Source: Octopus vulgaris
Lineage: Eukaryota
Direction of reading: 5' to 3'
NCBI GenBank assembly: GCA_951406725.2
Contig: OX597815.1
Coordinates: 112,220,001 to 112,284,000, forward strand
DNA: 64,000 nt
Shown: positions 23,690 through 24,525 of the stretch, one piece after another
Numbering within the stretch: the stretch's first letter is position 1
How the letters are laid out: each line of letters opens with the position of its first letter
Notes under the pieces: model-generated
What the model was told of the DNA's origin: nothing
Seen by the model: the letters and a program-made list of their open reading frames with translations, nothing else
Databases searched by the model: none
Made by a program: the position numbers and the translations under genes

Positions 23690-24525
23690 GGGTTTCGGAA
23701 TTAGATTGGTATAAAGAATGTGTAATTTATACTTTACCCGAACATTTTCTTCATCAGCATGGGACGTCACAATATTAAATATTAAAAATATTAAATTCGA
23801 AGGCACTGGAAGAACTGAACATATCTCTCCAACTAACGGTATCAGACAGATCAAATTCAACATCAGTACCGCCGAATTAAAAAATATACGAATGAATTTC
23901 ATCACCTTTCCCTGCCCATCCACGTGGGTCGTCAAGTAAAATACTACAGGAAAAATCTGTAGTTTATTATCAGGGATAAAATTATATTATCAATAATAAC
24001 AAAGGGTAAAATAATTTAATTAACTAGTAATCAATAATTTCGCCAAGTAGAATTCGGCATGAAAAAGGACCATTTCACGGTAAATTAAAGTAATACTTTA
24101 TTATAGGGTTCAGCAAAGATTTACTTTACCACATAGCGAAGTTTAGAAATAGCAGTACTGACGTTGAATTTGATCTGTCTGATACCGTTAGTTGGAGAGA
24201 TATGTTCAGTTCTTCCAGTACCTTCAAATTTAATATTTTTAATATTTAATATTGTGAAGTCCCATGCTGATGAAGAACATGTTCGGGTAAAGTATAAATT
24301 ACACATTCTTTATACCGCTCTAATTCCGAAACGCGTACATGAGTAATTTAATATCGATTGATTTTCGTTATTTTTCCTATCTGCCTTCGTGGATTGTTTT
24401 CGATTAATTTGATTTTTCCGGGAGTTTCTTTTTAAAGTAGAGGAAATAGATAAGGTTCTTTGGCTGCTATTTCTAAACTTCGGTATGTGGTAAAACAAAT
24501 CTTTGCTGAACCCTATTATAAAGTG
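23690..24525. mobile_element. HHR-bearing non-coding element with inversion, circularly permuted ~595-nt unit
   Basis: 23693-23869 is an inverted copy of 24155-24332, and 24093-24155 is an inverted copy of 24464-24525. (TA)n lies on both sides. Confidence 0.75.
24263..24341 (+). ncRNA. type-I hammerhead ribozyme, intact core, long stem II
   Basis: CATG-CTGATGA-(54 nt)-GAAA-CGCG-TA-CATG. Palindromic stem III ACGCGT and GUA triplet are typical of PLE minimal HHRs. Confidence 0.8.

Follow-up and report, generated by a model that had tools for sequence, protein, structure and literature searches.

Animal non-LTR retrozymes were defined by Cervera and de la Pena (2020, PMC7229834), who reported their circles in coral, mussel and axolotl and put forward Penelope-like elements (PLEs) as candidate mobilisers. 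In Xenopus, retrozymes have been tied to PLE terminal repeats, with 24 of 57 retrozyme families matching Repbase transposable elements, 21 of the 22 elements being PLEs, and with cleavage in one of nine tested dimers (Li, Clavereau and Pollet 2026, bioRxiv 10.64898/2026.07.22.740005). PLE insertions are described as having an inverted 5′-truncated copy and a tail at one end only (PMC8557442, Fig. 2 legend), the one-sided tail being 30–40 bp long, and palindromes have been noted at inverted junctions (PMC3846280). In experiments with purified PLE protein, both strands were cut and extended, synthesis began at two internal sites, unprocessed RNA was the preferred template, and insertion did not depend on cleavage (PMC11167929). 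The minimal type I hammerhead with palindromic stem III is of a kind said to act as a dimer (PMC4209133).

We analysed a 64,000-nt window of the Octopus vulgaris genome (contig OX597815.1, positions 112,220,001 to 112,284,000), in which an earlier note, made from the letters, had described a closed hammerhead circle. The locus at 23692–24524 and a relative further along represent two families, A and B, of animal non-LTR retrozymes; the class is known, and only the family and some details are new. Literature searches returned no paper on the family, and subscription papers, Repbase or Dfam entries and bioRxiv supplements might contain one.

Anatomy of the locus

The features of the two copies and their immediate surroundings are as follows.

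23592–23693, plus strand: terminal ~100 nt of an old, presumably Tc1/mariner-type DNA transposon, overlapping the left arm by ~2 nt and lying outside the element
23692–24524, no single strand: two-armed (head-to-head) insertion of family A, 595-nt unit
23692–24155, minus strand: left arm, unit 1–464, outer end absent
23692–23763, minus strand: second hammerhead copy, ending after GAAAC, without the cleavage triplet and the 3′ strand of stem I
23983–24155, minus strand: conserved module region, unit 1–173, which contains the short end (~unit 63), the long end (~165–173) and a pair of predicted hairpins
24152–24155: the sole strand-switch junction, a 4-nt overlap adjoining a palindrome at 24153–24160
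24152–24524, plus strand: right arm, unit 284–595 followed by 1–61, stopping at the canonical short end
24261–24343, plus strand: type I minimal hammerhead motif, recognised from sequence, with stems covarying across subfamilies
24526–24570: (TA)n target microsatellite touching the short end
54547–55195: family B copy, a long minus arm with hammerhead and a foldback plus arm, long end against (TA)n
54582–54634, minus strand: family B hammerhead motif, with U.U at 10.1/11.1 and a GUU triplet

Two inverted-repeat pairs are present, 23692–23872 with 24152–24332 (181 nt, 8 mismatches) and 24095–24155 with 24464–24524 (61 nt, 4 mismatches), because both arms copy overlapping stretches of one unit. 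The earlier note had explained them by two interlocking inversions, but there is a single strand switch only, at 24152–24155. This junction is matched in one of 87 other fetched loci and the left boundary in none (loci not de-duplicated).

The arms diverge from each other by 4–7%. The left arm lacks the usual long end, expected about 300 nt further out, and abuts the transposon fragment at 23592–23693, whose family name we take from the transposase motif PDCNPLDYYVWG; a later deletion probably took the outer left arm together with most of this neighbouring element. A start of the left arm at a self-cleaved RNA end is ruled out, since the arm stops 5 nt short of it and is joined to the transposon fragment, and no other non-canonical end lies at that position. 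The stretch at 23330–23535 is the 3′ end of a further repeat, whose hammerhead-like motif (~23405–23435) has decayed; it stops at the (TA)n just left of the locus.

A closed, non-coding unit in two families

The map closes on itself at 595 nt, as had been proposed, and no unit encodes a recognisable protein. The 40-mers over the two closing junctions are collinear at 86 (24463|24464) and at 43 (23873|23872) of 87 other fetched loci (again not de-duplicated), and complete head-to-tail units stand at five distinct loci, of 593 nt (L003, L015 and L029), 591 nt (L038) and 578 nt (L019). The closure is real because its junctions are collinear elsewhere and complete units exist, whereas scarcely any other locus has the inversion junction or the left boundary of this copy. 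A consensus running linearly into a PLE ORF, the outcome that the earlier note had set against its own reading, is absent in every mapped copy. Pfam gave no match for the longest stop-free frames (102 aa in A, 111 aa in B) or for an antisense 95-aa and a sense 100-aa frame, none of them common to A and B, and an ORF with reverse transcriptase (RT) and GIY-YIG endonuclease, as in an autonomous PLE, is absent from the retrozyme units.

The relative with its own hammerhead motif that had been placed near 54545–55195 is confirmed at 54547–55195. Its family, B, has a 559-nt unit alignable with family A across the entire length; its copies are 96–99% identical, and B is the younger family. Family B forms arrays of 11 units (L264) and about 14 units (L262/L263) with a period of 559 nt. 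The family A tandem maximum is 1.45 units, at L029, the only family A locus near two complete ribozymes in tandem; the 23692–24524 copy has one complete motif. Two family A loci, L034 and L051, have in common an internal deletion of ~unit 455–548, probably via TTCCG microhomology, by which the cut site is lost.

Subfamily units of 494, 547, 552, 557, 559, 564 and 578–595 nt were recovered, with a GC content of 32–35%. A search of the 2.8-Gb genome gave 3,146 candidates, 40 of which were scored, and the loci fetched from it are biased toward long, high-scoring copies. A motif common to A and B has 3,737 exact genome matches, 30 of which were inspected without bias, against one for a control. 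Public contigs from runs with unrecorded molecule type cover both families, at a depth relative to the Tc1 fragment like that of a DNA-like run.

The hammerhead motif

In the family A motif, stem I pairs 24261–24266 with 24338–24343, CUGAUGA lies at 24267–24273 and GAAA at 24328–24331, and stem III is palindromic. The GUA triplet named in the earlier note is present at 24335–24337, and cleavage is predicted from the motif to fall after 24337. The description of this hammerhead as intact holds for the core; stems II and I are substituted relative to public contigs (24278, 24318 and 24342), and positions 10.1/11.1 form an A.C mismatch. Every unit has the core, stem I, stem II and palindromic stem III, and stems I and II covary between subfamilies. 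Positions 10.1/11.1 are G-C in a few family A copies, L019 among them, A.C in most, and U.U together with a GUU triplet in family B, the counts being biased by the choice of loci. Such changes would weaken cleavage.

Rfam reported no hammerhead family over the whole window or over 23620–24520, and the isolated motif folds no better than its shuffles (z +0.9). Because its stem II is long, the family A motif escapes a generic hammerhead pattern whose gap is limited to 38 nt. On both-strand scanning, the hammerheads of the units lie in one polarity only. Further CTGA.GA...GAAAC pattern matches occur on the minus strand of the window at 40313–40355 and 45822–45862.

Insertion anatomy across the genome

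We mapped 153 fetched retrozyme loci, which gave 112 events once edge-cut loci had been dropped and duplicates merged, a count low by one through the wrong merging of L035 with L195. Two sites account for the canonical 3′ ends, a short one (about unit 63–68) and a long one (about 163–173), the latter ~100 nt past the former with a tail of about 95–110 nt. (TA)n is touched by 148 of 161 canonical ends, against 1 of 10 other ends. Fifty-nine of the 112 events are two-armed, so that the inverted shape is not peculiar to this locus but a routine insertion product of the family; 52 are short plus long, one is long plus long, none is short plus short, and six, including the 23692–24524 copy, have a non-canonical end. 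Where both ends are intact, short pairs with long in 52 of 53 two-armed events (p 6e-15 against 50:50). This pairing against (TA)n is the known PLE signature of a tail at one end, and the insertions have the inverted 5′-truncated copy, the one-sided tail and the microsatellite target of Penelope-like insertion.

The 5′ ends are spread along the unit, with 4 of 85 at the ribozyme cut site in family A (4.4 expected) and 4 of 67 in family B (3.7 expected), and 125 of 182 aligned segments cross that site. From the lack of enrichment and from these crossings we conclude that the template was uncut. Among 51 simple junctions between arms, 24 overlap (mostly by 1–10 nt), 24 have inserts and 3 are blunt.

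PLEs of the genome and the probable mobilising enzyme

The genome has both Neptune-type and Hydra-type PLEs with intact ORFs, the latter assigned by DKT, RW[KR], CxCX5C in one family and the lack of CCHH, following the motif definitions of PMC8557442 (section 11). In autonomous Hydra-type PLEs, a short end is paired with a long one, about 100–155 nt apart, at 14 of the 15 loci with two orientations, and the single Neptune-type tail seen is about 30 nt. The retrozyme tail of 95–110 nt fits the Hydra scale, and one Hydra family is similar in ribozyme-to-end spacing only. By tail length and spacing, the mobilising enzyme is most likely of Hydra type.

A partner was sought among three Neptune-type families and about ten RT variants of Hydra type, an incomplete sample of the PLEs, in which 16 terminal regions were without significant similarity to the retrozymes (best E 0.05) and 234 PLE-search loci held only nested retrozyme copies. 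The apparent matches at L253, L260, L292, L313, L348, L397 and L400 are, where inspected, nested retrozyme-like copies in neighbouring (TA)n; those at L139, L155, L246 and L273 are deemed the same from hit position. A motif similarity to two Hydra families seen by eye failed a shuffle control (z <=2.1).

Several other elements were recorded on the way. Retrozyme copies often sit in (TA)n right at the 3′ end of autonomous PLE insertions (L253, L260, L292, L313, L397 and L400), which fits a shared target. On contig 1 alone, RT variants of Hydra type number about ten, and several have an intact ORF of ~900 aa. The window itself holds, at 48985–51400, a two-armed Hydra-type PLE with a C-terminal GIY-YIG, an N-rich linker, a long-stem hammerhead and a tail of ~155 nt on one arm. 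A Neptune-type PLE that is very young and high in copy number, with a 1008-aa frame elsewhere, has its 3′ part in the window at 51945–54545; the 3′ UTR is CA-rich and ~2 kb long, the hammerhead reads CCGACGA instead of CUGANGA, and the fragment adjoins the family B copy. Elsewhere, L304:2760–3870 and L308 belong to a 781-aa Neptune-type family with a CCAAT/TGACGTC array in the 3′ UTR and a hammerhead-like motif of altered core, and L375:6330–6445 and L376 to a Hydra-type family in which the 3′ UTR is AT-rich and ~2 kb long and stem II of the hammerhead is about 100 nt. L299:1–700 is another hammerhead repeat of short tandem period, whose AAATGGTC...TTTTATACAC motif is common with the retrozyme tail (E 0.05). 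Broken LINE-type RT fragments lie in the window at 32630–35600 and 60240–62670.

Predicted whole-unit RNA fold

Monomers folded as circles gave z scores of -4.6 to -9.0 (14 shuffles each). The consensus fold of 11 units, from which the automatic 'units' at L014, L185 and L265+7005 were excluded as artefacts, has 99 pairs, with 94% of cells paired and 30 pairs changed on both sides, in 11 related rows and on a structure predicted from the same alignment; its score was reached by none of 500 shuffles. Long-range pairs spanning the whole unit covary. The covariation of the predicted fold may thus be counted as supportive, though not as proof.

Template, proposed mechanism and alternative explanations

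The earlier note had supposed a hammerhead RNA template, circular or tandem, copied with an inversion; the template part is supported, and the inversion is not peculiar to the locus. Opposite arms differ by 0.6% in family B (154/24,238; between-locus median 1.7%) and by 4.5% in family A (191/4,201; between-locus median 8.7%), and private variants are common to all units and both arms of an insertion (e.g. 17 in L200, 16 in L229 and 9 in L188). Re-amplification of one unit predicts such close units and common private variants within an insertion, and the pattern fits rolling-circle copying. In only 13 of 23 cases (B) and 9 of 15 (A) is the opposite arm a closer match than the nearest other locus, the arms of L112 are clearly different, and the uniformity of arrays could instead stem from sources that were already homogeneous or from homogenisation afterwards. 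It is on indirect evidence only that we favour a circle over linear tandem RNA. We give a real but clearly smaller chance to an uncut linear multimeric transcript of a genomic array, or a linear RNA with repeated template jumps, in which no circle would be formed and the ribozyme would largely be a passenger. Arms that cross the cut site, 5′ ends that ignore it, hammerhead cleavage that is dispensable in vitro (PMC11167929), the U.U and GUU of young family B and the existence of long source arrays all speak for such a template; between-locus differences fixed in all units and both arms would require a single-unit bottleneck followed by re-amplification, and the long-range covarying pairs across the whole unit also count against it.

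The remaining alternatives are much less probable. That the repeats are terminal-repeat debris of an unsampled autonomous PLE, not an independent element, is improbable: the insertion anatomy is the same as that of PLEs and unbiased inspection covered just 30 of the 3,737 motif matches, but the unit joins itself and never runs on into an ORF in the mapped copies, arrays reach 11–14 units, and none of the PLE terminal regions sampled matches. Satellite amplification at the DNA level with local inversion, or an assembly error, is largely refuted, because tandem arrays, which can expand by unequal crossing over, do not account for fixed 3′ ends at (TA)n, strict pairing of short with long, a spread over many chromosomes and 4–7% divergence between the arms of the 23692–24524 copy. 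It seems scarcely more credible that an exogenous viroid-like RNA integrated repeatedly. A structured circular fold with a hammerhead motif would suit such an agent; the motif has one polarity on both-strand scanning, copies span 0–15% divergence across subfamilies, and 36 IMG/VR pattern hits are those of chance, none matching the profile at E<1.

We therefore regard the locus as likely to be a truncated two-armed non-LTR retrozyme, reverse-transcribed from uncut, probably circular monomer RNA by a PLE enzyme in trans, most likely of Hydra type. Tandem transcripts would self-cleave via dimeric hammerheads and then be ligated to circles, and a PLE protein dimer would cut both strands of (TA)n. 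Of the two DNA ends, one may prime at the short and one at the long site; a predicted hairpin ending in CC lies immediately 5′ of each site. The two cDNAs would travel around the circle, terminate at random and be united head to head by end joining. More speculatively, and rather doubtfully, the units may form an old lineage of circular RNA parasites that sustains itself, comprises at least six subfamilies with 494–595-nt units and more than 3,700 motif copies, and is no longer recognisable as kin to any PLE; two similar hairpin modules would each dock one subunit of the PLE dimer, one circle would prime both break ends for double rolling-circle copying, and the weakened ribozyme core of the youngest family would suggest that self-cleavage of the circle is selected against, or else that cleavage is assisted by protein.

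Comparison with known systems

These data give genomic support to the proposed PLE-enzyme route of animal retrozyme movement, and they sharpen the PLE mechanism in that, within a single event, each target end takes one of the two initiation sites. The class is already in the literature, as are the inverted structure and the one-sided tail, so the gain is incremental; family B, which is young and whose copies are almost identical, could be put straight into the established in vitro PLE assay and a circle test.

Like the animal non-LTR retrozymes, the octopus families are non-coding, have a GC content below 45%, form tandem units and carry one type I hammerhead each (known here from the DNA letters); their unit length lies within the reported 51–972 bp, and PLE mobilisation via circles is proposed for both. 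Their unit is longer (494–595 nt) than those given for coral, mussel and axolotl, the core is atypical (10.1/11.1, GUU), and the PLE insertion signature was measured here. With respect to the Xenopus retrozymes, the octopus families showed no significant PLE terminal-repeat match in our incomplete sample (16 terminal regions, 234 loci). Chlamys elements of Chlamydomonas such as MRC1 are likewise non-autonomous, PLE-related and inserted as multiple head-to-tail copies, but, in the account of PMC8557442, their 3′ end resembles that of autonomous partners and the hammerhead is mostly absent.

A viroid-like replicon of the Avsunviroidae type replicates from RNA to RNA and has ribozymes in both polarities, whereas the retrozyme hammerheads occur in one. 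In L1 twin priming, both target ends prime and an internal inversion results. The same two-end priming is proposed for the retrozymes, but there each priming begins at a fixed site, and the two 5′ ends that meet at the junction come from unrelated places in the unit. The closest likeness in insertion is to Hydra-clade PLEs (Craig et al. 2021, PMC8557442) and to Poseidon PAc (Frangieh et al. 2024, PMC11167929), which have in common with the retrozymes the (TA)n targets, partial tandems, a minimal hammerhead, an inverted 5′-truncated copy, a tail at one end only and two initiation sites; the retrozyme differs from them in having no ORF, a tail of about 95–110 nt against the published 30–40 nt, and multi-unit arrays in both arms.
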